Shown here piece by piece: positions 689 to 17,926 of a stretch of DNA of 64,000 nucleotides. Position numbers and translations under genes: made by a program. The notes under the pieces were generated by a model, which saw only the letters and a list, made by a program, of their open reading frames with translations, did not search any database and was not told the origin of the DNA. Source of the DNA: Candidatus Latescibacterota bacterium. GTDB taxonomy: Bacteria > Latescibacterota > UBA2968 > GCA-2709665. How positions within the stretch are numbered: position 1 is the first letter of the stretch; every line of letters starts with the position of its first letter. The stretch spans positions 128,001 through 192,000 of the forward strand of contig CAXXXF010000018.1 in the NCBI GenBank assembly GCA_963667175.2. Reading direction: 5' to 3'.

Positions 689-3600
689 ATGTATAGACTG
701 ACGACCGATCTGACCGTTGCGTTCGTGCTTGTTGCGTTTCTGGCAATGGCCGGCGCGGCATTGGCCGGTACGACGGGTAAGATCGTCGGGCAGGTGACCG
801 ACGAGAGCGGCGAAGCGCTGCCGGGGGCCAGCGTGGTTCTCGAAGGAACGCGGCTTGGCGCTTCCACGGATGCCGAGGGGTTCTACGTGATCATCTCCGT
901 CGATCCTGACGTATACAAGATGACGGCATCCATGGTCGGCTACCATCCGGTGACCCAGGAACAGATCCAGGTGCGGTCCGACTTCACCACGACGGTGAAC
1001 TTCCAGCTTCGCGAGACGGAGCTGGAACTGGAGGAAATGGTCGTGGTTGCCGAGGCGCCTCCGGTGGAGCCCGATAAAACGGAGAGCCGGTACGTGGTGA
1101 CCGCCCAGGATATCGCGCGGACGCCGATCCTCAGAGACGCCTCGGAGTTCGTCGCCCTGGAAGCGGGCGTGGCGGTGGACGGCAGCGGGGTGATCCGCGG
1201 CGGGCAGGTGGAAGACAATCTGATCTACGTGGACGGCGTACGCCTGCAGAACCAGGACGGACGCGCGGGTCCCACTTCGCGGGGGAGCCAGTGGTGGGGC
1301 GCCAACGTGAAGGCGCTGCAGGAGGTTTCCGTGATTACGGGCGGGATGAACGCCGAATACGGGAACGCGCAGGCCGGGGTGATCCAGATGGTCACGCGGG
1401 ACGGCGGATCCAACTATCACGGCGAGGCCGAGTATCGGCTGACGCCCGGCGGCAAGAAGCACTGGGGCGCCAACGTCTACGATGCGCCCGAACACCGCGG
1501 GCACATGCGATGGAACGATCCCGCGTGGACGTCGGAGGTGGATCCGGAGACCGGCGCGCTGGTGCACCAGCGAACGAACTACACGGACCAGCGGGGTCAT
1601 TATTTCGACGCCTATCTCGGCGGACCGCTCCTGCCTGGAACGTCTTTCTTCGTGAGTTCGCGGAACCGGCGGGATGCCGCCAGGTTTCCGGGCGCGTGGT
1701 CCGTGCGGCCGTTCAATACCCGGAACACGGCGAAGATGACCGTCCGGGCGCACGACAACGTCAAGATGCAACTCGGCTGGCTCTACGACCGCTGGAAGTC
1801 CTTCAATAACGGAGCGCTGGGCGGCACAACCCCTTCCGTCAGCAATGTTCTTCGGGGGCCGGGGCGCGATATTTTCCTGCCCGAAGGGTCGCCCGCGGGG
1901 GAGACGATCAATACCGAAAGCGTCCTCTACGGCGTGATCACGCACACCATCAGCCCGAGGACCTTCTACGAATTGAGGCTCTCGCGGTACCGGAGCATCC
2001 AGGATACCAGCGGCGTTTCAAATACGACGGCGGACGTCGGGACCGACTCGGACGGCTGGTTCTACACGGGACGGGGAAGCGTGCGCGCGTATACGTTCGG
2101 GCAGCAGACCCGGAGCGCAATCAAGTTCGACCTGTCCAGCCAGCTTACGAAAACGCACTTTTCCAAAATCGGGATTGAATTCACGGGCTACAGCAATCAT
2201 TTCGTTCGCGAAGGCAACACGCCCGGGGACGCGCGGAAACAGATCCTGTATGTCGGCAATCCGGAGCCCGGACAGCCGATCACGCCGAAGCAGTTCGCGG
2301 CCTACGTACAGGACAAGATGGAATTCGAGGGCTTCATTGTGAACGCCGGCATTCGCTACGACCGTTTCTGGGGCGCCGACGTTCCGGTGATGGGCGCGTT
2401 GCGGGCGTTCCAGTACACAACGATGTCACGGTATCTCACGGCGCCCAGGTACCCGATGAAGCCCATTGTCAACTGGAGTCCGCGGCTGGGTATCTCCCAC
2501 CCGATCACGTACCGCTCGAGTCTCCACTTCTTCTACGGGCATTTCTATCAGTTGCCGAGTTTCTACCAGATGTTCCACGACCAGTGGTTCGGTTCGGGAG
2601 ACGGAATACCGGGCATCGGTTTCAGTGAATACACCAGCCACTACCGTCCGGCGCCCACGTCCGTCTCGAGGCCGATCTGGGACAATACGGCGCGAACGAT
2701 CAGCTTCGAACTGGGCGCGGACTGGAACTTCGTATCCGACTATACGCTCGCGCTGGCGACGTTCTACAAGAGTGCCTCCTTCCAGGAAACCGGAGGTTGG
2801 GACGTTTTCCTCTATCCTGAGTTGCGCGGCGCGGGAGTCCGCCTCCGTCAGCGTCTCTCCAGCACCCTGTCAAACATCCGCCTGGAAGACACACGTGGCC
2901 TGGAATTCAGCCTGAGGAAGGGCTTCAGCCACTACTTCTCGTTCCGCGCCGCCCTCAACGTGGCCTGGAGCGATTACAGTCTCGGCGGCGGCGGTACCGT
3001 CAGCAACGGCGCCACCGTGATCCCCGACTCGAACTATATCGCCAGCGGCAATTATTTCTTCGCCTGGGAGGTCGCGGGCGGGTCGGAACGTCCCGTAACC
3101 CTTAGCGATGAACAAATCCGGATCATCGGTCACGGCGCCAACGAAGCCATCAGAAACGCCCAGGCGGACCGTCGGGTCGCCGGGGGGTACGTCTACGACT
3201 TTTCAACCAACAGGGACGCCATCGTCCCCACCTGGGAGGAAGACTGGCTTTCGGACGAGGCCCGGGAGGGCGCCCGCGGCCTGTGGATCGTTCACGGACA
3301 CAGGGCGAATGAGGGTACGGACGTGGGTCGGAGAAGCCAGGGCAGCCTCCAGATGTTCCTGTCCACGCCGCAGGATTTCGGCGCCGGGCCGAAGATCGGC
3401 GGCAGCACGCTTCTGGGTGGCGTCAATGCCAACCTGATCTACCGGATCTATACCGGATCGCAGTTCACCTATCTGGTCCTCGACGGGACGCGCCAGATTG
3501 CGAGAGGTCCATTGCGTACCGTCATGGATCTGAACGTGCAGAAACGCTTCGAACTGGGCAGAGCCAGCGCCGACGTCTTCCTGGAGGTCTTCAATCTGTT

Positions 3601-3766
3601 CAACCAGCGGGACGCGCTGGCTTCAGGAACCGACTATATGTGGTGGGGGTTGCAGAGGCCCCGTCCGAACGACGCGAACTATCTCCAATTCGGCGACTTC
3701 CAGGACCGCAGCCGGTACGTGGGTGATCCCCGTATCACACACGTGGGCATTCGTATGCGGTTCTGA
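689..3766 (+). CDS. TonB-dependent receptor with N-terminal carboxypeptidase-regulatory-like domain
   Basis: Signal peptide; GTTGKIVGQVTDESGEALPGASVVLEG domain; plug motif ITGGMNAEYGNAQAGVIQMVT; YVQDKMEF/NAGIRYD barrel strands; terminal Phe; GGAGG RBS. Confidence 0.92.
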   Translation: MYRLTTDLTVAFVLVAFLAMAGAALAGTTGKIVGQVTDESGEALPGASVVLEGTRLGASTDAEGFYVIISVDPDVYKMTASMVGYHPVTQEQIQVRSDFTTTVNFQLRETELELEEMVVVAEAPPVEPDKTESRYVVTAQDIARTPILRDASEFVALEAGVAVDGSGVIRGGQVEDNLIYVDGVRLQNQDGRAGPTSRGSQWWGANVKALQEVSVITGGMNAEYGNAQAGVIQMVTRDGGSNYHGEAEYRLTPGGKKHWGANVYDAPEHRGHMRWNDPAWTSEVDPETGALVHQRTNYTDQRGHYFDAYLGGPLLPGTSFFVSSRNRRDAARFPGAWSVRPFNTRNTAKMTVRAHDNVKMQLGWLYDRWKSFNNGALGGTTPSVSNVLRGPGRDIFLPEGSPAGETINTESVLYGVITHTISPRTFYELRLSRYRSIQDTSGVSNTTADVGTDSDGWFYTGRGSVRAYTFGQQTRSAIKFDLSSQLTKTHFSKIGIEFTGYSNHFVREGNTPGDARKQILYVGNPEPGQPITPKQFAAYVQDKMEFEGFIVNAGIRYDRFWGADVPVMGALRAFQYTTMSRYLTAPRYPMKPIVNWSPRLGISHPITYRSSLHFFYGHFYQLPSFYQMFHDQWFGSGDGIPGIGFSEYTSHYRPAPTSVSRPIWDNTARTISFELGADWNFVSDYTLALATFYKSASFQETGGWDVFLYPELRGAGVRLRQRLSSTLSNIRLEDTRGLEFSLRKGFSHYFSFRAALNVAWSDYSLGGGGTVSNGATVIPDSNYIASGNYFFAWEVAGGSERPVTLSDEQIRIIGHGANEAIRNAQADRRVAGGYVYDFSTNRDAIVPTWEEDWLSDEAREGARGLWIVHGHRANEGTDVGRRSQGSLQMFLSTPQDFGAGPKIGGSTLLGGVNANLIYRIYTGSQFTYLVLDGTRQIARGPLRTVMDLNVQKRFELGRASADVFLEVFNLFNQRDALASGTDYMWWGLQRPRPNDANYLQFGDFQDRSRYVGDPRITHVGIRMRF

Positions 3767-3825
3767 CGCGGCCGGGCATGGCGTATACCGGAATCATGGA
3801 TGCCGACACGAAGGAGACCTTCGAC

Positions 3826-6132
3826 ATGAGCAAGATTTCCAGGATCGAGGCGATGGCAGTGCTCGTTGCGTTGCTTTTGTGCGTGCCTGACCCCGCGGCG
3901 GCGCAGGAGAATCACAGGTTCCAGACCCGCGCGAAGGTGTGGGATATGTTCTGGAACTACGGGACTCAGGGTGTTTCCGAAGACCCGGACGCCTGGTTGA
4001 GCTATTACCGCCAGATGGGCATGCAATATCCCGGCGTATGGACGCGCCAGTATTCCACGGAATTCCAGGACTACTGGGGAGAGCGGAGCTGGGGCTCCCT
4101 TCATCCTGCCTACGCGGCTCTGTTCGAGTCGACGGCCACGATGCCCGGTTTCAGCACGTTTATCGCAACCCGCGTGCCGGACGACCCGGAGGGCGAATAC
4201 TACGTGTCGATATCGAAGCCCCGCGCCATTACGGACGACGTCAGGATGATGTCCTACGATGCGTCCATGGGGCCGGAGGCGAATATCGGGTACCCGAACT
4301 ATTCTCCCGTAGGACCCGCGATGGCCAACTGGTGGCCGGGCGAGTCGCCTGTAGAAAGCCGGTACGTCACCGAGATTCACAACTACAGGTACGGCCACTA
4401 TATGGATCCCGATAAGGATAATTTCCCCGAGAGCCTTCTCATCATGCGCTGGACCACGAAGCGGGGGATCACGGTAACCAAGAAGGTCTATACCTGGAGT
4501 TATCCCGACTACGACGACTTCCAGATTATGGAGTACGAATTCGAGAATACCGGTGACTCGGACGGGGACGGCGCGGCGGACCTGAACGGGGGCGCCGGGC
4601 TGCGGCTGAACGACACCTTTTTCGCCTTCTCGGTCCGCTTCTTCATCTCGCAGGCCGGACACGGATGGATGAACTACGATGCATGGTATCGGCGAACCCG
4701 GCCCACGGACAACGACGACTGGTTCAAGTTCACCGAGGCGGCCAATTACGACGGGCCCGCCGCGGGATTGGGCATGAAAATGTGGTACGCCTATGACGGG
4801 GACAACCCGCTCATGCCGGGAGACGACATCGGCAAGCCGTACAACCCGTCCTCGGCGAACCCGGGATACGCGGGGCGGCCCTCGCAGGTGCGGGCGCCGG
4901 GAGAGTTGACGGCATTTCAGTATACAGGATTCGCGCCCATCGCGTACCTGCCGTCATCCTCGAACGATCCGGGCACGTTTTCCTACGATACGAAGGGAGA
5001 CGACAGCTACGTCGCCCCCAGGATCGAAGACCAGCCCCATACGGTAAGGTGGTGGGAATACCGGAACCGGGGCGATTTCGACGAGCCGGACCAGGACAAC
5101 CATTCTTTCCAGGAAATCTATGACCTGTTGATCGGCGCCGAGTCCGATATCAAGGACAATCCCCCCGTGGTCGGGGCCTGGCACGGGTCGATCGCGTACG
5201 GTCCTTACCACATGGCGCCGGGGGACAAGGCCAAATTCGTCTTCGTCCTGGCGGCGGCCGCGCCCGTGGAAGAGAATATCTGGGGCTGGGCCAAGCAGGG
5301 CAAGCAGGCTGAGATGCGTACGGACAAAGCGTTCAACAACCTGGTCAAGCACGTCAACAAGGCCAAAGAGGCGTTTCAGTGGCACTACGACCTTCCCGAC
5401 GCGCCGCCCGACGTGAAGGTGGACGTGGGCGTGACGACGGAAGGTTTCATATCTCTGGCCTGGGACGACGTGGCCGACGACGCGGCGAACCCCGACTACT
5501 CGGGCGCGGAGGCCAACGACGTGCTGGGCTACCGGGTCTACCGGTCTCTCTTCAAGCGCGACGACTGGGAACTGATGGTGGAGATCCCGGTGAAGTCGGA
5601 CATATTCTATAGTGGCGGCACGTACGAATTTGTCGACAAGAAATCGATCGCGGGATTCCTTTACGATTACAGTGTCCGCACCTACAGCGATGCGCACAAC
5701 GACTGGAACGGCACGGGCATCGCCATTCCGTCCCTGGAGAGCGGCAACAGCTCGCCGGAGCAGTGGGTGAACGGCGTCAAGGTCTCTACGCCCTATGTTC
5801 CGTCCACGGCGCAGTCCGATCAACTGGACAGAAAGGTGATCGTGACCCCGAATCCATACCGGGATGACGGCGCCCACGCGTATGAGAACAAGGGTCAGAT
5901 CCGCTTTCTGAACATACCGCGGAAGTGCCAGATCCGGATCTACACGGTCGCGGGGGACCTGATCGCGGAGGTCAATCACGACGACCAGGGGCGGGGCGAG
6001 ACCACGTGGAGCCAGACGACCATCGACAACGTGGGTTCGGCTTCGGCCGGCGTGTACTTTTACGTGGTTGAGTCGTTGGTGGACGGGACGTCCGGAAGAA
6101 CCCAACGTGGAATATTCGTGATCAGCAAATGA
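3826..6132 (+). CDS. Secreted protein with FN3-like domain and T9SS type-A-like C-terminal sorting domain
   Basis: AAGGAG RBS before ATG 3826; signal peptide; DSDGDG Ca-loop; FN3-like ISLAWDD...LGYRVYRS...YDYSVRTY; C-terminal VTPNPY...IRFLNIPRKCQIRIYTVAGDLI...GVYFYVVE...IFVISK. Confidence 0.8.
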   Translation: MSKISRIEAMAVLVALLLCVPDPAAAQENHRFQTRAKVWDMFWNYGTQGVSEDPDAWLSYYRQMGMQYPGVWTRQYSTEFQDYWGERSWGSLHPAYAALFESTATMPGFSTFIATRVPDDPEGEYYVSISKPRAITDDVRMMSYDASMGPEANIGYPNYSPVGPAMANWWPGESPVESRYVTEIHNYRYGHYMDPDKDNFPESLLIMRWTTKRGITVTKKVYTWSYPDYDDFQIMEYEFENTGDSDGDGAADLNGGAGLRLNDTFFAFSVRFFISQAGHGWMNYDAWYRRTRPTDNDDWFKFTEAANYDGPAAGLGMKMWYAYDGDNPLMPGDDIGKPYNPSSANPGYAGRPSQVRAPGELTAFQYTGFAPIAYLPSSSNDPGTFSYDTKGDDSYVAPRIEDQPHTVRWWEYRNRGDFDEPDQDNHSFQEIYDLLIGAESDIKDNPPVVGAWHGSIAYGPYHMAPGDKAKFVFVLAAAAPVEENIWGWAKQGKQAEMRTDKAFNNLVKHVNKAKEAFQWHYDLPDAPPDVKVDVGVTTEGFISLAWDDVADDAANPDYSGAEANDVLGYRVYRSLFKRDDWELMVEIPVKSDIFYSGGTYEFVDKKSIAGFLYDYSVRTYSDAHNDWNGTGIAIPSLESGNSSPEQWVNGVKVSTPYVPSTAQSDQLDRKVIVTPNPYRDDGAHAYENKGQIRFLNIPRKCQIRIYTVAGDLIAEVNHDDQGRGETTWSQTTIDNVGSASAGVYFYVVESLVDGTSGRTQRGIFVISK

Positions 6133-6214
6133 GACGGCCGAATTGCCGAGCCAGCGAAATCCCGGTTCGCCTTCTCGTGGAACCGCTCAATCGAAACGGA
6201 GAAGGAACAAACCT

Positions 6215-7168
6215 ATGAAACGGATCTTGTGGATTGGAATCGTGGCGAGCGCAGGATACGCGATGCTGTTTCCCGAGGTCGCCCGTTGCGACACGCAGAA
6301 GCGCCTCGGCCAGGCGGTGTTCTCCGTGCACAAGGTGGACCATGGGGCGCGTGTCGCGGGCATGGGCGGGGCGTTTACGGCGATCGCGGACGACATCAGT
6401 ACCATATTCGTGAACCCGGCCGGACTCACCTACGTCGAAGAGATGGAGTATACCCTTTCGTACACCCGCTGGCTCGTCGATACCCGATTCTATTCGGGCG
6501 CGCTCGCCTACAATACGGCCCGCGGCGTGGTCGGGTTGTCCGTCATGGCATTTTCGGTGCCGGACGTGGAAGAGACAACCATTTACCAGCCCATCGGGAC
6601 CGGAAGGATGCTGGAGATCGGCGATTTCAGCATTGGCGGTTCCTATGCGACGAAGTTGACAGACAAGCTCTCGTTCGGATTTCAGGTACGGTGGACCCAG
6701 GAAACCATCGACGTGGACAAGTTGACCGGCGTGGACTTCAATTTCGGCACGACGTTCAATACGGGTTTCAGAAGCCTCCGGCTGGGGATGGCGTTCAAGA
6801 ACCTGGGCAAAGACATCGAGTCCAGGGAACTCAACTACCAGATGCCGGTTGCGTTCGACTTCGGTTTCGCGGCGGAAGTCTTCGGTGAAAAGGGCCGCGA
6901 CCCCACGTACCTGACGGTGACCGGCGAGAGTCACTACGCAACGGACTACTCCGAGCCGCGATATCGCATTGGCGGCGAACTCTGGCTGCAGAACGCATTC
7001 GCGTTGCGCGGCGGCGTCAGGCCCGGGTACGATACGGAGGTGTACAGCCTGGGTCTGGGATTGAAGGTCAAGCCGGTCGAGGGCAAGGTGGTACGCGTGG
7101 ATTTCGCGTACAGCGACGGCAACGACTTCGAACCGCCGCTTCGCTTCAGCCTGAGCGGATCGTTCTGA
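6215..7168 (+). CDS. PorV/PorQ (UPF0164)-family outer-membrane beta-barrel protein
   Basis: GARVAGMGGAFTAIADDISTIFVNPAGL signature; amphipathic strands; terminal Phe; signal peptide from ATG 6215. Confidence 0.88.
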   Translation: MKRILWIGIVASAGYAMLFPEVARCDTQKRLGQAVFSVHKVDHGARVAGMGGAFTAIADDISTIFVNPAGLTYVEEMEYTLSYTRWLVDTRFYSGALAYNTARGVVGLSVMAFSVPDVEETTIYQPIGTGRMLEIGDFSIGGSYATKLTDKLSFGFQVRWTQETIDVDKLTGVDFNFGTTFNTGFRSLRLGMAFKNLGKDIESRELNYQMPVAFDFGFAAEVFGEKGRDPTYLTVTGESHYATDYSEPRYRIGGELWLQNAFALRGGVRPGYDTEVYSLGLGLKVKPVEGKVVRVDFAYSDGNDFEPPLRFSLSGSF

Positions 7169-7224
7169 CGGGCGCCGGTTCGGCGTATGCCTCGCAGGTT
7201 CCTAAAAACGGGAGGAAAATCGCT

Positions 7225-7314
7225 ATGATGAACGCTCGAACGCTGTTCACACCAGGATCCATTGTTCCTGCTGCCGGTCTGCTCGTCAGCGATATCGGGT
7301 TGATGCTGCTTTGA
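7225..7314 (+). pseudogene. Relic signal-peptide fragment of a fourth Cache-like paralog
   Basis: GGAGG RBS, then MMNARTLFTPGSIVPAAGLLV, matching MLKARTLLTPSGMIPVAGLLV (9871) and MMKVRMLFTKAYVHPVFGLLA (11752); stop after 29 codons. Confidence 0.75.
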
Positions 7315-7519
7315 GAGGTGGCGTCCGGGGCGTCGAATTTGAGAATGGAGACGCCAAAGCCGCCGCTTAGTCCTTCCGGATGCGCTCCCCGCCATCCACA
7401 ACGTCTGGCAATATCTCTATTTTCCCTTCTCCGGAACACTTCCTGCTTCCCAAAACATCGTTCCGTTTCATGCTCCATGAATTCGTCTGGCTAAGTCGTA
7501 CGAACGCCAACGTCGTCGT

Positions 7520-7625
7520 GTTTCATATTGAGATACGCATATCGCATAGTGTTTCATATTGAAATATTAATTGGCGTATCGGTTCAAATTGTGTTATAAT
7601 ATCATCACATATCGTTTCATATTGA
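7520..7625 (+). promoter_or_regulatory. Sigma70-type promoter embedded in a phased operator array
   Basis: TTGGCG(7571)-N18-TATAAT(7595) with extended TG; GTTTCATATTGA at 7520, 7551 and 7614, plus a 9/12 copy at 7581. Confidence 0.75.
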
Positions 7626-7720
7626 GACATTCAATACAGGGCCGCTTCTATCCCGCAACGCCCTCCGGGTGTCCCGGATCCGATCAGTCAATTAAGCCAT
7701 AGGCAAGGAGTACCCTCGGG

Positions 7721-9538
7721 ATGAAAATTCGAACGTTACTCGCCTCAGCATACGCGATTCCTGTTGTCGGCCTGCTCGTGCTGGCCGGTTTCTTCGCCAA
7801 CCCGCATCCCGCCCTGGCGCAGACAGATGAACCTTGTCCACTCCCTCCGGGTGTGACGCCTCCTGCGGAACCGCGGGTGACGGCGCAGCAGGTGGAAGAC
7901 GGCAGCGCCAGCCTGAAGGACTTCGCTCTGGCCGCAAGGGATCAATTCAAAGCGCCAAGCATACTCCCGTATCTTTTGTGTGACATCAGGCAGGAGGGGG
8001 GGGCTTACCGTTCCGGTTCCACCTACCTCGCGCAACTGACGATGGACGGCAGGGTGTACGTTCACGCCAAGAGCATGTCATTGTCGGGAAGGCTACTCAA
8101 CCCCGTGATTTATGCGGAGATCCTTTCTGCGCTGGGCGTCTCCCCAACCGTTCTGGCCGATCTGGCTTCTCCCGATCCTGCCGTCGCCGCCCGCACCTTC
8201 GGATCCCTCTATGCCGCATTGGCACAAGACCGGGATGCCCCATTCGATGCGTCCAGCCACATACCGGGCGCCTCTGGCTATGCCACCACCTTTCTCGACC
8301 TGACAGGCGCCCCACTTGTGATGCTCGCGGGATTCGATCTGGACGAATCTCACCTATCCGAAGAAGAAATCGATTACGGCAACCCGGCCGTTACTGCAAG
8401 GGACGTGGTGGACCGCAGCACGCTGAAAGCCTTCGTCTCGGAAGCGGGAAAGTACTTTGGCGAACGCCTGAGGGCCGGCGGTTCAGCCGCGACGCAAGCC
8501 AAGATCGCCCTGCGTGATCCGAACGGCCCCTGGCGACACGGTTCCGTGTACCTCTACATCCTGCTCAGCCACGCCAACATAGTCATGTTTCACGGCGCGT
8601 TTCCAGACAGATTCGAGCTTCAGCCTTTGGTAGGGATTGCCCGAGATGGCGTTACCGGAGAGCTCATTCTGCCACAGGTCCTCGAAGCGGCGAAGAGTAG
8701 CCCGGAAGGCGGCTTCGTGGAATATTTCTACGACGATCCCAACGACGACACAGACCGAGCCGATCTCCCCAAGGTGGGTTACGCCCGCGAGTTTATTGGT
8801 GAATACGGCTTGCCGGACGGAAGCGGAACCCGGGTCGCTTACATCATCGGGTCGGGCTTTTACGGTCGGGCGCCCGAGATTGTCTCGACGGGTCCGAGCA
8901 CGGTCGTGGAGGGCACAGTGGTTGGCGACGCCGTTGAGGGCTTGGACGTGGCGTTTTCCCGTGCCGTAGCCGGCCGCCGGTCCGACTACGCGTGGAGCGC
9001 CGTGACCGATGCTGCCGGCCTGTTTACCCTGACCATCTCCGGCTCGGATGGGCTGGGCGGCTACTATCGGGCCCGGGCCACCAACGCCGCCGGCGAAATC
9101 GTCGGCCAGTGGGCCAGCATCCCTCTGAACGAAGGCCGCCGGCAGGTCCTGGAACTGACGCTGGGCGGCGGCGCGCGGGTCGTCCGCGTCGCATCGTTGG
9201 AATCCGCCGAAGAGCCGGTGGCGGCATCCAAGCCCGCGTTCGCGTCAGAGGCAGTGCCGGAAGCCAGCGGTCTGTCGCCCAATTCGCCCAATCCGTTCAA
9301 CAGCGCCACGCTGATTACCTACCATCTGGCCAGCGCGGGTCCGGTGCGGCTGGTAATTTACAACGTGCTGGGTCAGCCCGTACGGACGCTGGTGGACGGG
9401 TCCCGTGTGGCGGGCAGCTACCAGGTGAAATGGGACGCGCGCGACGAGGGGGGCGTCTCTCTGTCGACGGGGGTCTATATTGCGAGGCTGAGCTATCCTG
9501 GCGGCGCCCAGACGCAGCGGCTGCTCTACCTCAAGTAG
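7721..9538 (+). CDS. Secreted tandem Cache-like domain protein with Ig-like and FlgD/T9SS-type C-terminal domain (paralog 1)
   Basis: Signal peptide; Cache-like motifs YLYIL...IVMFHG, GGFVEYFYDDP...KVGYAR...IIGSGFY; C-terminal PNPFNSATLITY...IYNVLGQPVRTLVD...WDARDE...GVY. Confidence 0.75.
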   Translation: MKIRTLLASAYAIPVVGLLVLAGFFANPHPALAQTDEPCPLPPGVTPPAEPRVTAQQVEDGSASLKDFALAARDQFKAPSILPYLLCDIRQEGGAYRSGSTYLAQLTMDGRVYVHAKSMSLSGRLLNPVIYAEILSALGVSPTVLADLASPDPAVAARTFGSLYAALAQDRDAPFDASSHIPGASGYATTFLDLTGAPLVMLAGFDLDESHLSEEEIDYGNPAVTARDVVDRSTLKAFVSEAGKYFGERLRAGGSAATQAKIALRDPNGPWRHGSVYLYILLSHANIVMFHGAFPDRFELQPLVGIARDGVTGELILPQVLEAAKSSPEGGFVEYFYDDPNDDTDRADLPKVGYAREFIGEYGLPDGSGTRVAYIIGSGFYGRAPEIVSTGPSTVVEGTVVGDAVEGLDVAFSRAVAGRRSDYAWSAVTDAAGLFTLTISGSDGLGGYYRARATNAAGEIVGQWASIPLNEGRRQVLELTLGGGARVVRVASLESAEEPVAASKPAFASEAVPEASGLSPNSPNPFNSATLITYHLASAGPVRLVIYNVLGQPVRTLVDGSRVAGSYQVKWDARDEGGVSLSTGVYIARLSYPGGAQTQRLLYLK

Positions 9539-9570
9539 CAGGAGTCGGTTGGCGCAGGACGCGTTCGTCC

Positions 9571-9640
9571 GAGAACCCGTCCGGAAACGCTTGATGAGTC
9601 TTGATTACGAGGCTATCAAGGGTTACCGGACGGGTTTTTC
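9571..9640 (+). terminator. Long hairpin / terminator-like element after paralog 1
   Basis: aacccgtccgg...ccggacgggtt arms followed by a T run; homologous to 13640-13711. Confidence 0.6.
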
Positions 9641-9870
9641 AATTGCATAAGTCGTTTCAACGGGTCCGTACGTAAGGTTCACTTATTCGACAGGTCGCAG
9701 ATTGATGGTAAAGTGATTATCGGTTCGTATTTTTGTTGCAGATCGGATGGAATTTACTTTATATTTAGCTTCTGAAGGTTCGGCCCTGAGTGGTGGACCA
9801 ATGGCTCGGGGAGAAGAGGGTCAGCTGTGGTCGCTTGCGCGACGTCGCCCATCAAGAAAGGATTGCCATC

Positions 9871-11679
9871 ATGTTGAAGGCTCGAACGTTGCTCACTCCG
9901 TCAGGAATGATTCCTGTAGCCGGTCTGCTCGTGCTGGCCGCCGTCTTTGCCAACCCGAATTCGGCTCTGGCACAGACGGATGAAGCCTGCCCGCTCCCGC
10001 CGGGCGTGACGCCTCTTGCGGAACCGCGGGTGACGGCGCAGCAGGTGGAAGACGGCAGCGCTACCTTGAGAGAATTCGGGTTGGAAGCGAGAAACCGGTT
10101 CAGCCGAGGGACGGGTTCTCGTGAACGGCAGTTATACGTGGGTTGTCTCATGAGGCAGGATGGGAGCCATTTGCACTCCGGTTCTACTTATCTTGTGCAG
10201 CTGACGCCTGATGGCAGGGTGTTTATTCACGCGAAGAATATGGCGCTGTCGGGCAGGTTGCTCGATCGCGTGATTTATGGCGCGATTCTTCGGGCACTGG
10301 AAATCAACGTGGCCGGTTTGCAGGATGATCCCGTTGCGATAACGGCCGCCTTCATTGAAGCTGCAGGCAGAGACGGCGGCGAGTTCAACATATCTGATAT
10401 CCCGGGGGCTTCAGGTTATGCAGCTGTTTATTTTTCGAAAAACTTCAGATTCCCTATCGTGATGCTTGCCGGATTCGACCTCAACGAATCCCACCTGGTC
10501 AAGGAAGAAATCGACTATGGTATCCCCGCCGTTACCGCGCGTGACGTGGTGGACCGGGAAACTCTAAAGGCCTTTGTTACGCAAGCAGGTGAGGCCCTTC
10601 TCAATCAGCAGAAGGGCGGTGATCTGGCCGCGACTTCGAAAGCCAGGGTGGCGTTTAGAGACCCGGACGGGCCCTGGAGACACGGTTCCGTCTATATTTA
10701 CATTCTGGATCTCACCACCAATATTGTCCTGTTTCACGGTGTATTTCCGGATTTATTCGAACTGCGGCCTCTGGTGGGGATCGCGCGAGACGGCATTACC
10801 GGAGAGCTTATATTGCCACAGGTGTTAGCAGCAGCAATGAGCGGACCGGAAGGCGGATTCGTGGAGTATTTCTATGACGATCCGACGGACGACACGGACA
10901 GCGCCGACGTACCCAAGGTGGGATACGCCCGTCAGTTTACCGGTGAACGGGTGAGAGAAGACGGTACTGCGCTCACCATCAATTTTGTCGTTGGGTCTGG
11001 TTTTTACAGGCGTGCGCCTGATATCGCCGCGACGGGTCCCCGTACAGTCGTTGGGGCCAAGGTCCTGGGCGACGCCGTGGAGGGGTTGGACGTCGAGTTT
11101 TCGCGGGCCATCGCCGGGCGCCCGTCCAGCTACGACTGGAGCGCCGTCACCAATGCCAATGGCGTTTTGGCCCTGACCATCTCCAGCACGGACGGGGTGA
11201 GCGGCTATTACCGCGCCCGCGCCCGTAACGCCGCCGGCGACGTCGTGGGCCAGTGGCACAGCATTCCCCTCAATCGCAATCAACGCCAGATACTGGAACT
11301 GACGCTGGACGGCGGGATGAGGGTCGTACGGGTCGAACCGCTGGCCGCGGGCAAGCTGGCGATCGCGGCCGAGCCGGTGGCGGCGCCCGAGACAGAGGGC
11401 GCATTCAGCGGTCTGGCGCCCAATTCGCCCAACCCGTTCAACAGCGCCACCGTGATCACGTACCACCTGGCCAGCCCCGGCCCTGTGCAATTGGCGATCT
11501 ACAACGTGCTGGGCCAGCCTGTACGGACCCTGGTGGATGCGTCCCAGGCCGCCGGCGCCTACCAGGTTCGGTGGGATGCGCGCGACGAGGGTGGCGCATC
11601 GCTTTCGACTGGCGTCTATATCGCACGGCTAAGCTATCCTGGCGGCGTGCAGACGCAACGACTGCTGTACCTCAAGTAG
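9871..11679 (+). CDS. Secreted tandem Cache-like domain protein with FlgD/T9SS-type CTD (paralog 2)
   Basis: Colinear with paralog 1 over its full length; start set at ATG 9871 (AAAGGA RBS, signal-peptide homology). Confidence 0.75.
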   Translation: MLKARTLLTPSGMIPVAGLLVLAAVFANPNSALAQTDEACPLPPGVTPLAEPRVTAQQVEDGSATLREFGLEARNRFSRGTGSRERQLYVGCLMRQDGSHLHSGSTYLVQLTPDGRVFIHAKNMALSGRLLDRVIYGAILRALEINVAGLQDDPVAITAAFIEAAGRDGGEFNISDIPGASGYAAVYFSKNFRFPIVMLAGFDLNESHLVKEEIDYGIPAVTARDVVDRETLKAFVTQAGEALLNQQKGGDLAATSKARVAFRDPDGPWRHGSVYIYILDLTTNIVLFHGVFPDLFELRPLVGIARDGITGELILPQVLAAAMSGPEGGFVEYFYDDPTDDTDSADVPKVGYARQFTGERVREDGTALTINFVVGSGFYRRAPDIAATGPRTVVGAKVLGDAVEGLDVEFSRAIAGRPSSYDWSAVTNANGVLALTISSTDGVSGYYRARARNAAGDVVGQWHSIPLNRNQRQILELTLDGGMRVVRVEPLAAGKLAIAAEPVAAPETEGAFSGLAPNSPNPFNSATVITYHLASPGPVQLAIYNVLGQPVRTLVDASQAAGAYQVRWDARDEGGASLSTGVYIARLSYPGGVQTQRLLYLK

Positions 11680-11751
11680 CGCCGATCGGAAAGCCGGTCA
11701 GCCAGCCGTGGGCGCGCTTGCGACCTTATCTCAAAGGGGGGGAGAATTGTC

Positions 11752-13608
11752 ATGATGAAGGTTCGAATGCTGTTCACGAAGGCATACGTACATCCCGTTT
11801 TCGGACTGCTCGCACTGGCCGCCGTCGTCTTCGTTTCACATCCCGCCCTGGCGGTCTGTCCGCTCCCTGAGGGCGTGACGCATCCCGATAACCCGACTGT
11901 GACGGCGCTGCAGGTGGAAGACGGAAGCGCTACCGTTGAGGAGTTCGCGCTGGCCGTGAGAGAGCGGTCCAGAGAATATGCCCGGGGATCGGCGACCGCC
12001 GAGCAAGGGGTATACATCGGATGCATCATCAGGGAGGACGACGGGATCTGGCGTTCCGGATCCACGTACATCGTGAGCCTGACGCTCGACGGCAGAGTGT
12101 ACATTCACGCGAAGAACATGGCATTGTCCGGCAGGCTGCTCAACCCGTTGATTTATGGATCAATCCTTTCCGCGCTGGGCGTACCCGTGACCACCCTGAC
12201 CGATATGGCGTCGCCCGACCCTGCCACCTCCGCTCAGGCTTTCGGCGCCGTAATTGCTAAGTTGTCGCAGGAACCGGACGGCGCATTCGACGCGACCACG
12301 CCGATTCCAGGTCTGTCACCGGGTATACCGGGCGCTACGGGCCATGCCGCCGTCTACGTCTCGCCGAATTTGGGGTCTCCGATTGTGCTGCTGATGGGAT
12401 TCGATCTCGACGAATCTCATGTGGTTGAAGAAGAGATCGATCACGGCGACCCTGCCATCACCGCCAGAGACGTGGTGGATCGGGAAAGCTTGAAGGCCTT
12501 CGTCACGCAAGCGGGGAATTTCGTGCTGGAATTCCTGAGTTCCGGCGACGTAGCCGCCAGCTCGAAATTCAGGATCGCCCTGCGGGACCCCGACGGGCCC
12601 TGGAGACACGGTTCCGTGTATCTCTACATCCTGGATATCGCGAGTGACGTCATCCTGTTTCACGCGGTGTTTCCGGACAAATACGAGTATCGGCCGATGA
12701 TACCGACCGTCCTCGACGCCGTGACCGGAGAGTTCATCCTGCCGCGGGTCATCGAGGCGGCGAAAGGCAGCCCCGAAGGCGGCTTTATAGAGTATCATTT
12801 CGACGATCCGACGGACGACACCGACCGCGCCGACGTCCCCAAGGTGGGCTACGCCCGCAAATTCGCCGCGGAAATCCGGAGGCCGGACGGAAGCACAGTC
12901 CCGGCTGACTTCATCATCGGTTCGGGCTTTTACGGTCGGGCAGCCGACATCGCGACCGGTCCCAGCACGGTCGTGGAGGCCACGGTGATGGGCGACGCGG
13001 TCGAGGGGTTGGACGTGGAATTTGCGCGGGCCGTCTCCGGCCGTCAGTCCGACTACGCGTGGCGTACCGTCACCGATGCTGCCGGCCTGTTTACCCTGAC
13101 CATTGCCAGCCAGGACGGGGTGAGGGGATATTATCGGGCTCGCGCCACCAGCGCCGACGGCGAGGTCGTGGGCCGGTGGAGCAGCATACCTCTCAATGAA
13201 GGCCGCCGCCAGGTTCTGGAATTGACGCTGGGCGGCGGCGCGCGGGTCGTCCTTGTCGCGTCGCTGGCTTCCTCCGCCGAAGAGCCGGTAGCGGCGTCCA
13301 AGCCCGCGTTCGCGTCAGAGGCAGTGCCGGAAGCCAGCGGTCTGTCGCCCAATTCGCCCAATCCGTTCAACAGCGCCACGCTGATCACCTACCACCTGGC
13401 CACTCCGGGTCCGGTGCGGCTGGTAATTTACAACGTGCTGGGTCAGCCCGTACGGACGCTGGTGGACGGATCCCGTGCGGCGGGCAGCTACCAGGTGAAG
13501 TGGGACGCGCGCGACGAGGGGGGCGTGTTGCTGTCCACAGGGGTCTACATCGCGCGCCTGAGCTATCCTGGCGGGTCGCAGACCCAGCGGCTGCTCTACC
13601 TCAAGTAG
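11752..13608 (+). CDS. Secreted tandem Cache-like domain protein with FlgD/T9SS-type CTD (paralog 3)
   Basis: Colinear with paralogs 1 and 2; 3' end nearly identical in DNA to paralog 1. Confidence 0.75.
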   Translation: MMKVRMLFTKAYVHPVFGLLALAAVVFVSHPALAVCPLPEGVTHPDNPTVTALQVEDGSATVEEFALAVRERSREYARGSATAEQGVYIGCIIREDDGIWRSGSTYIVSLTLDGRVYIHAKNMALSGRLLNPLIYGSILSALGVPVTTLTDMASPDPATSAQAFGAVIAKLSQEPDGAFDATTPIPGLSPGIPGATGHAAVYVSPNLGSPIVLLMGFDLDESHVVEEEIDHGDPAITARDVVDRESLKAFVTQAGNFVLEFLSSGDVAASSKFRIALRDPDGPWRHGSVYLYILDIASDVILFHAVFPDKYEYRPMIPTVLDAVTGEFILPRVIEAAKGSPEGGFIEYHFDDPTDDTDRADVPKVGYARKFAAEIRRPDGSTVPADFIIGSGFYGRAADIATGPSTVVEATVMGDAVEGLDVEFARAVSGRQSDYAWRTVTDAAGLFTLTIASQDGVRGYYRARATSADGEVVGRWSSIPLNEGRRQVLELTLGGGARVVLVASLASSAEEPVAASKPAFASEAVPEASGLSPNSPNPFNSATLITYHLATPGPVRLVIYNVLGQPVRTLVDGSRAAGSYQVKWDARDEGGVLLSTGVYIARLSYPGGSQTQRLLYLK

Positions 13609-13890: not shown

Positions 13891-14957
13891 ATGGGTGATC
13901 CGGTGGTTCTGCTCCGTGATGGAGGGGTGAAATTTCATGTGTTTCGGGGAAGCCCCACAGAGATGGGCAGCGCTCACGGTTCTCTGGATCCGGCCTTCGT
14001 GCGCACGCGGCTCGTCGAATGGTTGACGTGGCCTCATGATTTCGATCATCCTTACTTTCGGAAGAACATGGCGTTCATGCGACGAGAGTTTCCGGACTTT
14101 ATGGAACGGATGCAGGCGTACGGCGCGGCGGCGGGCATCACTTCTGCGTGGTTCACACGTCTGTCAACAACGCCGGTCTGCTGACAGGATGGGCGTCGGG
14201 GGCGCCCAAGTTTCACTGGCCCGACAATCCGGAACACGTCAATCTCTTTCAGATCACGGGGCTCGTGCCCCAGCATTGCGGCGACTGCGAGGACGTCCGG
14301 CGCTTTCTCACCGAATACCGGATTTCCGGCCTTAACAGCCCATTGAAAAAGTCCATCCGGGCTGCGTCCGGCCCCTATGGCCGAAATACGGCGTTGCCTG
14401 CCTGCAGCAGGCAGGCGCTCCCTCCCCGAATCCAGGGATTCGCGTCGGTCGCGCGTCTTGTCTTCGGCCACAATGACTCGGCCTCGCCTGCAGAGCGACT
14501 TTTTCAACGGACCGTTAAGGGCCTGACAGGTACTGCCGTGGACGCCCGGGGGAATATCCTGGGGTTCGAACTCGAATCGGGAAATATCGCGTTTCGCGAG
14601 CCCGAAGACGACGTGGTGCTGGAGGTGAACCACTGGCAGCACCCGCATTTGCAGCGCCCCGCCCGGGAACGTCAACCGGAATTCTGGACGAGCCCGTATT
14701 TCTACAACTCTCAGAATCGCGTGCAGTACGTGGATTATCATCGGGAGACCTTCAAGCAGATGCGCACCATGGAAGACCTGATCGACTTTTCGTTCGACGT
14801 GCACGCTCCCGGGCGAATCCTGCAGATGCCCGGCGCCAGCATCGCGGACTGGATGACGTCGCATGCGATCTTCCTGACCGCCGCCGACCGGAGAATGCGC
14901 GTACACCCGTTCCCGCTCGCCAAAGACAGGTACACGGAAGTCGCCTATCGCGAGTGA
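13891..14957 (+). pseudogene. C45-family (acyl-CoA:6-APA acyltransferase-like Ntn hydrolase) gene with internal deletion, frameshift and MITE insertion
   Basis: N-part FRGSPTEMGSAHG...FPDFMERMQAYGAAAG in one frame; C-part SVNNAGLL...DARGNILGFEL...EVNHW in another; the segment expected to carry the nucleophile is missing at about 14145. Confidence 0.6.
14332..14518. mobile_element. MITE (179 bp) with terminal inverted repeats and TTAA target duplication, inserted in frame
   Basis: TTAA-cagcccattgaaaaagtc ... gactttttcaacggaccg-TTAA; TTAA at 14332 and 14515; removal restores ISG-LK-GLTG. Confidence 0.85.
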
Positions 14958-15055
14958 CCGGAAATCCGCTGCCATCGGGGCCTTCCCGCTCCTGAAATCC
15001 TGAATCCGGGGTCCGCCTTCAGGAAGGTGGAAGCCCAGAACCGGAGCCTTTCAAC

Positions 15056-15961: not shown

Positions 15962-17926
15962 ATGAACTCCGACCCCGGCTTCCGTGCGCCCAATGAGGAC
16001 GTCAGGGACGGCCTGACGCCGCGAGCCTTGCTGATCGGCCTTGCCTTGTGCGTGTTTCTGGGGCTGGTTCTGCCCTACAACCGCATGGTGATCCAGGGCC
16101 GGTGGTTGAACGCCTACTTCATAGACCGCGGCGCGCTGGTGCTCCTGTTCCTTCTGGTTCTGTTCGCCAATCCGCTGATCGCGGCACTGCGGAAACGATC
16201 CGTCCTTCACCGTGGCGAACTGCTGGCCATTTACGCGATGTTTCTGTTTCTGCTGCCCGTCTCGCAAATGGTCAAGCATCTGATCTCGTACCTGACCGGT
16301 GTTACCTATTACGCCTCTCCCGAGCGTCGGGACCTGGAGGCGGTGCTGCCCAATATCGTCTCCTGGACCGCTCCTCGGGACGCCGAGGTCGTCCGGGGTC
16401 TCTACGAGGGGCTGCCCGACGGGGTCCCGCCGCCCTGGGGGGCATGGCTCGTCCCGCTCCTCAGTTGGGGCGCATTTCTGCTGGCGCTCCTCTGGGTGCT
16501 GATCTGCCTGGCGGTTATCATCCGGAAACAGTGGGAGGACCACGAACGGTTCGCATTTCCCATCATGCAGGTCCCCCTTGAGGTGTGCGAGACCCGAAGC
16601 GGCAGGGTGGGACGCCTCTTCAGGAACCGCTTGGCGTGGGCGGGCTTCGCGATTCCGTTCGTGATCGGTTCGATCAACGCGTTGCACCACTACGTCCATA
16701 CGGTCCCCCGGATCGGTCTGGTCCACGACGTCTGGATCTTCGACGGTACGACGCCCTTTCGCCTCAGGCTCCACTTCGCTATTCTGGGGTACTCGTACTT
16801 CGTGAATACGGACGTGAGCCTGAGCATCTGGGTGTTCAACGTCCTCTCCAAGATTGTCCGAGGCGTGCTGGCGGTCCTGGGCGCGGAACGCTACAATGTA
16901 TCGGGCGTCGTGGGCCGGTTCAGTTCCCAGGGACACGCGTCTCTGGCCCTGATGGGCATGGGATACATGATCGTCCTGGCCGCGTACAGCCTGTGGGTGG
17001 GGCGCGAACACCTGCGGCAGGTTGCCGCGAGAGCGATGGGAAGACCATCGGCGGCGAACGACTCAGGCGAAGTGATGTCCTACCGGGCGGCGCTGATCGG
17101 AATTGGAGGAGGAACGCTTTACCTGGGAGGCTGGCTGTATCAGGCCGGGATGTCACCGCCGGTGATCCTGGCGCTGTTCGCCTCATGCTTCGTGGTGTTT
17201 CTGGTGATGGCGCGGATCGTGAGCGAGACCGGATTTGTGACCGCTTACTCGCCCATCAACCCGGCAGAATTCGCCGTTTGCATGGTCGGATCATCCGCTT
17301 TCAGCCCGCCGGGTCTGGTCACGCTGGGGTTCGGCTACGCATGGACGATGACGCGTACGAGCACGCTGATGCCCCGCGCCGCGGGCGCACTCTGGCTGGC
17401 CCGAAGGATACCCCGCACGAAGGGCCTGGTCTGGGCAATGGGTCTTGCCCTGGCCGTGGGGCTGATCACCGCGAGTACGATGACGCTCAAGCTCGGCTAT
17501 GCCCACGGCGGACTCAACCTGGATCGTCACTTTCTGGACTATGCGCGCCTGCCGTTCGATGCGTTCGTGGGCCGACGCATGCTGGAACCGAGTCCGGTCT
17601 TCACCAGAGGGATTCTGTACCTCGGATTGGGGGCCGCCATTGCGGCGCTTCTTGCAGCGATGCGAGCCCGTTTCACGTGGTGGCCGCTGCATCCCGTCGC
17701 GCTTCCCGTCAGCACAATAGCGTATACGGATTACTTCTTTATCAACGTCTTTCTGGCCTGGGGGATCAAGAGCCTGGTGTTGAGGTTCGGAGGCGCCAGG
17801 CTCTACAGGTCGACCCGCCCGTTTTTCATGGGCATCATCCTGGGGGAGGCCGTCTGCACCGGACTCTGGATCGCTGTCGATGCCTTCACCGGAACGGTGT
17901 CGAATATGTTCTTTCCGTACGCGTAA
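15962..17926 (+). CDS. Multi-pass membrane protein, DUF6785/DUF6784-like putative transporter
   Basis: GLTPRALLIG start; PWGAWLVPLLSW; IIRKQWEDHERFAFPI; WWPLHPV...IKSLVLRFGGARLY...PFFMGIILG; many TM helices. Confidence 0.8.
   Translation: MNSDPGFRAPNEDVRDGLTPRALLIGLALCVFLGLVLPYNRMVIQGRWLNAYFIDRGALVLLFLLVLFANPLIAALRKRSVLHRGELLAIYAMFLFLLPVSQMVKHLISYLTGVTYYASPERRDLEAVLPNIVSWTAPRDAEVVRGLYEGLPDGVPPPWGAWLVPLLSWGAFLLALLWVLICLAVIIRKQWEDHERFAFPIMQVPLEVCETRSGRVGRLFRNRLAWAGFAIPFVIGSINALHHYVHTVPRIGLVHDVWIFDGTTPFRLRLHFAILGYSYFVNTDVSLSIWVFNVLSKIVRGVLAVLGAERYNVSGVVGRFSSQGHASLALMGMGYMIVLAAYSLWVGREHLRQVAARAMGRPSAANDSGEVMSYRAALIGIGGGTLYLGGWLYQAGMSPPVILALFASCFVVFLVMARIVSETGFVTAYSPINPAEFAVCMVGSSAFSPPGLVTLGFGYAWTMTRTSTLMPRAAGALWLARRIPRTKGLVWAMGLALAVGLITASTMTLKLGYAHGGLNLDRHFLDYARLPFDAFVGRRMLEPSPVFTRGILYLGLGAAIAALLAAMRARFTWWPLHPVALPVSTIAYTDYFFINVFLAWGIKSLVLRFGGARLYRSTRPFFMGIILGEAVCTGLWIAVDAFTGTVSNMFFPYA

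Follow-up and report, generated by a model that had tools for sequence, protein, structure and literature searches.

Cache domains are the largest class of prokaryotic extracellular sensors and have been studied as the input parts of signal transducers. The closest known counterparts of the proteins treated here are the sCache_2 domains of chemoreceptors, namely those of the V. parahaemolyticus methyl-accepting chemotaxis protein (MCP; 4EXO/2QHK, with pyruvate), PscD-SD (5G4Y) and Adeh_3718 (4K08); such domains bind pyruvate, acetate or propionate. Extracellular Cache modules that act as binding parts with no output of their own occur in animals, in the alpha2delta calcium-channel subunits and CACHD1. 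A further point of comparison is the type A cargo of the type IX secretion system (T9SS) of the Fibrobacteres-Chlorobi-Bacteroidetes (FCB) group; known T9SS cargo consists mostly of enzymes, adhesins and motility proteins. We analyzed a 64,000-nucleotide stretch of a Candidatus Latescibacterota genome (contig CAXXXF010000018.1, positions 128,001 to 192,000; hereafter the window), in which three tandem genes encode proteins that combine a predicted Sec signal and a T9SS sorting domain with a head that points to two sCache_2-like modules in tandem. In the main texts of the literature searched, we found no description of a T9SS-exported or any other non-signalling bacterial Cache protein, nor any Cache-domain T9SS cargo.

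The three + strand open reading frames (ORFs; 7721-9538, 9790-11679 and 11752-13608) encode paralogs A, B and C, which are 63-70% identical in pairwise comparison; alignment of B with A and C places its probable start at ATG 9871 rather than at GTG 9790. A first-pass annotation, made from the sequence without database searches, had called them three tandem secreted paralogs of about this size, each with a signal peptide, an internal repeat, an Ig-like domain, a FlgD/T9SS-type C-terminal domain (CTD) and two conserved cysteines, and with no transmembrane (TM) or output domain. This description held up throughout, with products of 602-618 aa. Signal peptide and TM calls were made by Kyte-Doolittle hydropathy in 19-residue windows at a threshold of 1.6. 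The N-terminus is the only run of several windows at or above 1.6 in each paralog (predicted cut in A at ALA33/Q34), and no sustained hydrophobic stretch was seen past residue 40 in any of the three; protein C has two isolated single windows at 1.6-1.74 (starts 289 and 488), both lying within predicted strands. Pfam and NCBIfam searches of the three paralogs found no output domain, and a TM-bracketed Cache domain with cytoplasmic output, as in the layout of MCPs, histidine kinases and cyclases, is not what they present.

At the other end, the T9SS type A sorting model TIGR04183 scores 32.6, 36.9 and 35.4 bits in A, B and C against an NCBIfam cut-off of 23, and Pfam FlgD_ig scores 32.7-35.9 bits against 27; with a CTD above cut-off and an N-terminal Sec signal, the paralogs qualify as T9SS type A cargo. 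The Ig-like region of C is an all-beta sandwich in its AlphaFold2 model (residues 405-504), whose whole-model Foldseek matches are likewise beta-sandwiches, and this domain recurs in 9 other ORFs of the same genome. Each paralog has exactly two cysteines, which are kept in 58/61 and 60/61 aligned relatives. The internal repeat is plain in profile-profile comparison of unit 1 with unit 2 (probability 94.5%, E 7.6e-8, 72 columns). A single-sequence search of the PDB gave weak CTD-like matches at most, and a scan for promoters and terminators stayed at chance level (4 promoters versus 2.3 +/- 1.6 expected; 4 terminators versus 6.6 +/- 2.5).

The AlphaFold2 model of C, built on 60 aligned sequences, has a mean predicted local distance difference test score (pLDDT) of 82.8. 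Beta-sandwich matches dominated its Foldseek results, and the head (C residues 31-400, holding units 1 and 2) was therefore modelled separately, with pLDDT 91.3 and a predicted TM-score (pTM) of 0.89. All four PDB matches of the head with E <= 0.001 in Foldseek are sCache_2 chemoreceptor domains (4exo, 2qhk, 5g4y and 4k08; target TM 0.57-0.64). The Foldseek-independent VIA search agreed, giving 4k08 at Z 13.0 (root-mean-square deviation, rmsd, 3.2 A over 134 aligned residues) and 4exo at Z 12.8; every row of that search, dCache structures included, aligns to unit 2. Superposed on the whole head, dCache structures reach TM 0.15-0.26 with rmsd 13-22 A, and in the head model each unit has a separate N-terminal helix pair of its own. 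Together, the poor dCache superposition and the helix pair per unit point to a head made of two sCache_2-like modules in tandem, not to a canonical dCache. The first-pass annotation had proposed double-Cache-like proteins; the Cache fold of the units stands, as the sCache_2 type, and the double-Cache arrangement is not supported.

For unit 2 the assignment comes from structure search, and for unit 1 from several indirect lines that together suggest a Cache-type module. The two units have the same order of elements in the model (two helices, two strands, helices, three strands). Their profile match spans the two N-terminal helices and first two strands, the C-terminal half of unit 1 having diverged. 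The nearest named ESM-Atlas clusters of unit 1 are sCache_2/dCache_2 (0.94). Finally, the head is collinear with that of P0274, a paralog from this genome at 31% identity (E 6e-58), whose units both exceed the Pfam sCache_2 cut-off. Other relatives also score above a Pfam Cache cut-off (P0005 at 41.7, P0082 at 106 and P0155 at 302 bits, with P0274 at 107), while PF17200 is not among the Pfam matches of A, B and C. Since the window proteins miss the cut-off that relatives pass, we file them as divergent Cache relatives and not as Pfam-defined members.

The binding site of unit 2 can be compared with that of the pyruvate sensor by alignment. The family profile aligns weakly but consistently to 2QHK/4EXO and 4K08 (HMMER, E 0.009-0.05). 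According to PMC12415202, the residues contacting pyruvate in 4EXO are Y96, F98, H109, F148, W150 and K161, and His at position 109 marks a pyruvate-type site where Leu marks a lactate-type one; an offset of 37 places all six residue letters on the aligned chain positions. In C these correspond to Y290, Y292, H304, Y348, F350 and K364, with H304 as the pyruvate-type and not the lactate-type marker. Among 117 full-length family members, five of the six positions are at least 95% conserved, and that of F350 at least 80%, the remainder being mostly Tyr. In the 61-sequence alignment, which takes in distant relatives and where most of the misses are fragments, Y290, Y292, H304, Y348, F350 (as F/Y/W) and K364 are kept in 59, 55, 56, 54, 55 and 54 sequences, respectively. 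The pocket reads YYHYFK in autotransporter-fused and Acidobacteriota forms as well.

Across paralogs A, B and C the six positions are identical or exchange one aromatic residue for another. The variation lies in four segments of C: 68-95 and 256-275, at the junction of helix 1 and helix 2 in units 1 and 2, and 203-213 and 373-388, at the tips of the beta4-beta5 hairpins. Diversified pockets had been proposed for the array; with the contact positions near-invariant and the changes in loops and hairpin tips, the result is the one that the annotation itself had set down beforehand as speaking against that idea. Given so constant a pocket, all three paralogs are predicted to bind one ligand class and to differ in their surface loops. 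By its residues, unit 2 has the carboxylate-binding sCache_2 pattern and unit 1 does not (V108, G194, no aromatic pair): at the positions equivalent to Y292 and K364 of unit 2 it has Val and Gly, and it is without the Lys and the aromatic pair. It has instead a conserved set of its own, R94, Y106, R115, H119, F179 and H223, kept in 57-60 of 61 sequences.

The array proteins thus share with the sCache_2 chemoreceptors the fold, the six unit 2 contact positions, the pyruvate-type His and an extracytoplasmic location. They differ in having no flanking TM segment or cytoplasmic signalling module, two modules of which unit 1 is remodelled, a T9SS export tag, a unit 2 beta4-beta5 hairpin that is ~11 residues longer than in 4EXO and hypervariable, and scores below the Pfam cut-off. 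With FCB-group T9SS type A cargo they have in common the signal peptide and TIGR04183 CTD, the Ig-like domain before the CTD, and a genome with SprA and PorV-family genes. The animal proteins are a remote likeness (8s7c, Z 8.6; 8x90, Z 7.6 in the VIA search); their modules are of dCache_1 type, lie in VWA-containing eukaryotic proteins and follow another export route.

Comparison with related loci shows an array that changes faster than its surroundings. Between the window and its close relative L001, the flanking genes have nonsynonymous divergence (dN) of 0.010-0.027 and synonymous divergence (dS) of 0.21-0.28, whereas paralogs B and C (88% and 89% identical to their L001 orthologs) have dN 0.058-0.060, about three times that of the flanking genes, with dS 0.30-0.37 and dN/dS 0.16-0.20. 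The unit 2 core is the most constrained part of the protein (dN 0-0.017 between orthologs). Paralog A has no close ortholog in the relatives' loci compared, its best match there being 67-68%. Nucleotide identity between A and C is 59-78% across the head but 93-97% across the linker and CTD, and for this reason their 3' ends appear to bear the mark of recombination or gene conversion. There are also signs of decay: the L001 ortholog of C (L001:10001-11848) has an in-frame stop near codon 487, at the cost of the CTD and the end of the Ig-like domain if translation ends there, and in L005 one array copy is split near residue 225. In four metagenome runs the array falls in short contigs, some of which join paralogs at homologous places (for example 8792 to 12909, in all four runs); the sides of these joins span 21-44 letters, the joins could be assembly chimeras or real shorter arrays, and we draw nothing from them.

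Homologs of the head are numerous and are attached to several kinds of display tail. Of 8000 candidates scored, 1301 proteins have E <= 0.001, and clustering at 50% leaves 211 representatives with E <= 1e-30; the few relatives that are named carry the source name 'T9SS type A sorting domain-containing protein'. In P0132, P0146 and P0155 the head is joined to autotransporter beta-domains, and P0155 (2142 aa) has seven sCache_2 stretches. On a 2.0-Mb contig of an Opitutales metagenome-assembled genome (MAG; L009), two tandem genes of ~990 aa (6519-12976) pair the Cache head with leucine-rich repeats (LRRs); over ~400 residues their heads share 72% and 57% identity with C, and an IS110 transposase lies downstream. 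The head has likely been transferred between phyla here. Acidobacteriota relatives have the head with a different tail of ~470 aa.

Two further forms are encoded in the array's own genome: (i) In P0274 (529 aa; L020:1416-3005, G000:C15:548915-550504) a signal peptide is followed by two sCache_2 units, an Ig-like domain and a T9SS CTD; the protein represents a more canonical sister family of the array proteins. (ii) P0275 likewise carries two sCache_2 units behind a signal peptide and ends in a weak dockerin-like match (E 0.08); it adjoins an LRR-dockerin gene (E 3e-4) and a cohesin gene with a FlgD_ig/CTD end (27.7 bits versus a cut-off of 24.1; L021:1107-6766, G000:C15). Together the three genes may encode a cohesin-dockerin device for surface display of Cache and LRR modules.

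Within the phylum the head is patchy, occurring in 48/168 genomes and 7/49 genera at 1-7 matches per genome. It is confined to three families (13/21, 13/31 and 21/76 genomes) and was found in none of eleven others; even in the genus of the window's genome, 3/14 other genomes are without it. Several copies in this survey are split or have stops. Three sequencing runs contain at least half of the words sampled from the window; two of them, from a single study, carry the label sponge metagenome, and the third is perhaps the source; no RNA run is among the listed runs with the window's words. A link between Cache domains and sponges has a precedent in Thaumarchaeota, for which PMC7848895 gives enrichment of Cache Pfams in sponge-associated members and suggests host recognition; it offers Pfam counts only, not the array architecture. 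The main text of a paper on sponge Latescibacterota (PMC12993501) makes no mention of 'Cache' or 'T9SS'. The eukaryotic-like and surface proteins of sponge symbionts (LRR, ankyrin and tetratricopeptide repeat proteins) are alike in being habitat-linked, patchy, multi-copy and proposed for host recognition, and the fusion of the Cache head to LRRs in the Opitutales MAG and its position beside LRR-dockerin genes in the window's genome form a link to them.

Features of the array and its upstream neighbours in the window (residue numbers refer to paralog C).
Feature	Coordinates	Strand	Remarks
Paralog A	7721..9538	+	605 aa; signal peptide, tandem sCache_2-like head, Ig-like domain, T9SS type A CTD
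Paralog B	9871..11679	+	602 aa from ATG 9871, ORF open back to GTG 9790; architecture as A
Paralog C	11752..13608	+	618 aa; modelled protein; architecture as A
C signal peptide, residues 1-34	11752..11853	+	hydrophobic stretch; helix 4-27 with low pLDDT
C unit 1, residues 35-232	11854..12447	+	derived sCache_2-like module, extra helical insert, Cys 36 and Cys 91
C unit 2, residues 233-398	12448..12945	+	sCache_2 fold; full short-chain-carboxylate pocket Y290, Y292, H304, Y348, F350, K364
C Ig-like / transthyretin-like beta-sandwich, residues 399-505	12946..13266	+	AlphaFold2 model, Foldseek
C Ala/Pro/Glu-rich linker, residues 506-530	13267..13341	+	flexible; low confidence, pLDDT <50 at 508-527
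C T9SS type A C-terminal sorting domain, residues 531-618 and stop	13342..13608	+	TIGR04183 35.4 bits versus cut-off 23
PorV/PorQ-family outer-membrane protein	6143..7168	+	NF033709, 154 bits versus cut-off 90; directly upstream
784-aa protein, FCB-group hypothetical family	3778..6132	+	weak CTD-like / PorZ C-terminal match, E 6e-5, residues 677-777
TonB-dependent-receptor-like protein	689..3766	+	CarboxypepD_reg and Plug; syntenic in close relatives only

The genome, which is 95% complete, encodes some of the parts that export of such cargo would call on. SprA is above cut-off at 488 bits (626 with neighbouring same-frame matches), there are seven PorV-family matches, and 14 ORFs have a type A CTD, three of them being the paralogs. 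The PorV/PorQ-family protein encoded directly upstream of the array may handle T9SS cargo, possibly that of the array itself. The 784-aa neighbour has no sequence match in the PDB, and its Atlas clusters are of the FCB group and unnamed; its weak PorZ-like end suggests that the adjacent genes (3778-7168) may form a PorZ/PorQ-like pair. We infer that the array proteins are T9SS-exported cargo located at the surface.

The neighbourhood is conserved at short range. A block of the TonB-dependent receptor (TBDT) gene, the 784-aa gene, the PorV/PorQ-family gene, the array, a DUF6785 gene and a cyclase gene recurs in L001, L005 and L006, with two, four (one of them split) and three array copies, respectively. 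The flanks of these three loci are 90-97% identical to the window, marking close relatives, and the TBDT synteny therefore carries little functional weight. More broadly, arrays of 2 to 6 copies lie between conserved flanks in records titled Latescibacterota or Gemmatimonadota MAGs. The ten other loci, distant or second ones, have unrelated neighbours and no common transporter: glutamine synthetase, sigma-70 and PTS-EIIA (phosphotransferase system) genes in L008; in L012, transposases to the left and right; in L015, a restriction-modification methylase together with Band-7 genes; and, for the Acidobacteriota homolog L013, an ABC importer and a sodium:solute symporter on either side. L007 and L010 match L008 in their ORF layouts (L010 by layout only). 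Adjacency to a TBDT gene is thus seen in L001, L005 and L006 and absent from the ten others, and the proposal that the array proteins feed the upstream TonB receptor loses its footing. The window does resemble the arrangement of SusD/SusE-like binders with SusC-type TonB receptors in having a surface-binder gene near a CarboxypepD_reg-Plug receptor, but the binders have no sequence or fold relation and the adjacency is unconserved beyond close relatives.

We also note some side features of these loci: (i) The 654-aa DUF6785 and DUF6784 protein of the window (15962-17926) is found downstream of the array in L001, L002, L005 and L006, at 89-96% identity. (ii) Between 14052 and 14975 the window has overlapping ORFs on opposite strands (14148-14957 on +, 14052-14975 on -), of which the + frame is better kept in relatives and has a weak C45-family match. 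(iii) An element of ~189 bp with 23-nt terminal inverted repeats occurs as a single copy within the window (14331-14519). Its summed word depth is 320-480x in three metagenome runs, compared with ~5-10x around it, and 42x in a fourth; some contigs skip it, one of them exactly. It looks like a high-copy repeat resembling a miniature inverted-repeat transposable element. (iv) Beside the Cache array of L007 is an 868-aa protein (L007:6183-8789) with a CarboxypepD_reg-like and two Peripla_BP_6 domains, whose N-terminal beta-sandwich shares 40-42% identity with the Ig-like domain found in the Cache proteins.

Our tentative proposal, at a probability of roughly 0.45, is that the array proteins are non-signalling, surface-displayed binders of a carboxylate-bearing ligand that serve attachment or recognition. 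After Sec export one disulfide (C36-C91) would form, and the T9SS would carry the protein across the outer membrane and leave it on the cell surface, where a PorU-like sortase may anchor it, or it may be released. Module 2 would there bind a carboxylate-bearing ligand, and module 1, with its own invariant Arg/Tyr/His set, would provide a second, different site or play a structural role. The first-pass annotation had spoken of released or surface-displayed ligand binders; this fits export-tagged, TM-free proteins, location and binding both being predictions. Because the proteins have no transmembrane or output part, we take binding itself to be their probable function. The ligand would be host- or matrix-derived in a sponge habitat, and the role would be attachment or recognition rather than hand-over of a nutrient to a transporter; we favour this role because the head is also borne by autotransporters and LRR proteins, possibly with a dockerin, and is patchy, multi-copy and common to several phyla.

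Several observations weigh against this proposal. The strongest point against attachment is that the canonical sCache_2 pocket is small and enclosed, suiting free C2-C3 acids over a polymer-attached ligand; this speaks for a role in binding small molecules, and for the proteins to work as adhesins the pocket would have to be opened up. For surface anchoring, the PorU-like ORF of the genome reaches 213 bits against a cut-off of 420, and searches of the genome with GldL/GldM models returned nothing, a result that is uninformative as control genomes were equally silent. On the side of the fold, a Pfam dCache_2 match (PF08269; residues ~271-383) is present below threshold, at 13.6-21.6 bits versus 26.5. 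No sign of an arms race is seen, dN/dS being below 1 in all segments with no positive selection in the two ortholog pairs compared (dS between paralogs is saturated). The habitat argument rests on record and run labels, and the binding, localisation and expression of the array proteins are predicted from sequence and model.

The small pocket also lends itself to a different reading, in which the proteins trap a free short-chain acid or other small nutrient at the surface and hand it to an outer-membrane transporter such as the TonB receptor. Sensors of free pyruvate, acetate and propionate have this same pocket. The TBDT-like gene, 4 kb upstream and in the same orientation, belongs to a block kept in L001, L005 and L006, and one Acidobacteriota homolog sits between an ABC importer and a sodium:solute symporter. 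Yet the TBDT synteny is limited to genomes whose flanks are 90-97% identical, and the ten other loci, with their glutamine synthetase, sigma-70, transposase and restriction-modification methylase genes, share no transporter. Moreover, C2-C3 acids pass porins, and such porin-permeable acids need neither a surface binder nor a TonB-gated channel, while the seven-fold repeats of an autotransporter and the LRR fusions are unlike scavengers. The strongest points against scavenging are the lack of a conserved transporter partner and the adhesin-like architectures, and we consider it unlikely. A more novel possibility is that the invariant pyruvate-type pocket binds a carboxylated sugar on the sponge's polyvalent surface proteoglycan (for example pyruvate-ketal galactose or uronic acids) and not a free acid; the head would then be a lectin-like 'host badge reader', moved between phyla by gene transfer and shown via T9SS, autotransporter, LRR protein or cohesin-dockerin. 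Such an epitope exists in sponges, as each glycan of the Microciona aggregation factor bears about 100 copies of pyruvate-ketal galactose (PMC7828597). This more specific idea is a long shot. If true, the reader would serve attachment in the sponge matrix or recognition as a resident, not food, and it would be a symbiosis factor shared across phyla as well as the first case of a bacterial Cache domain put to a lectin-like, non-signalling purpose.

Two other explanations deserve mention. The array proteins might be released to sequester a metabolite or signal of the host or of a competitor, or might be variable surface decoys against phages or host phagocytosis, with the Cache fold mainly a scaffold. 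Families that vary the cell surface typically show what is seen here: arrays of several copies, a changing copy number, pseudogenes, hairpin tips that are hypervariable, and transfer between phyla. The pocket residues, however, hardly change from one phylum to another, and purifying selection on them is stronger than elsewhere in the protein, which argues that the protein exists for its ligand site and is not just a scaffold. Nor does dN/dS exceed 1 anywhere, and we hold the explanation by sequestration or decoy to be highly doubtful. Cache domains being overwhelmingly sensory, a ligand-loaded protein could instead dock onto a membrane sensor whose output is encoded elsewhere, much as periplasmic binding proteins dock onto chemoreceptors and LuxP onto LuxQ; sigma-54 response regulator and PTS-EIIA(Ntr)-like genes do lie near the second array locus (L007, L008, L010). 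The T9SS CTD, autotransporter barrels and LRR tails nonetheless point beyond the outer membrane, away from inner-membrane sensors, and no sensor gene is conserved beside the arrays, which makes signalling in trans very improbable.

What these proteins add to the Cache superfamily is a conserved module with a predicted ligand pocket that is used without a transducer and is predicted to be exported beyond the outer membrane. In different phyla, and in sponge-labelled runs and records, it is mounted on three or more display devices that are unrelated to one another. If binding proves true, they would constitute a new functional class, surface binder or lectin-like, within the superfamily. Research on sponge symbiosis gains a candidate factor that occurs across phyla and can be tested, since its ligand class is predicted and K364 and H304 are the predicted knockout residues.

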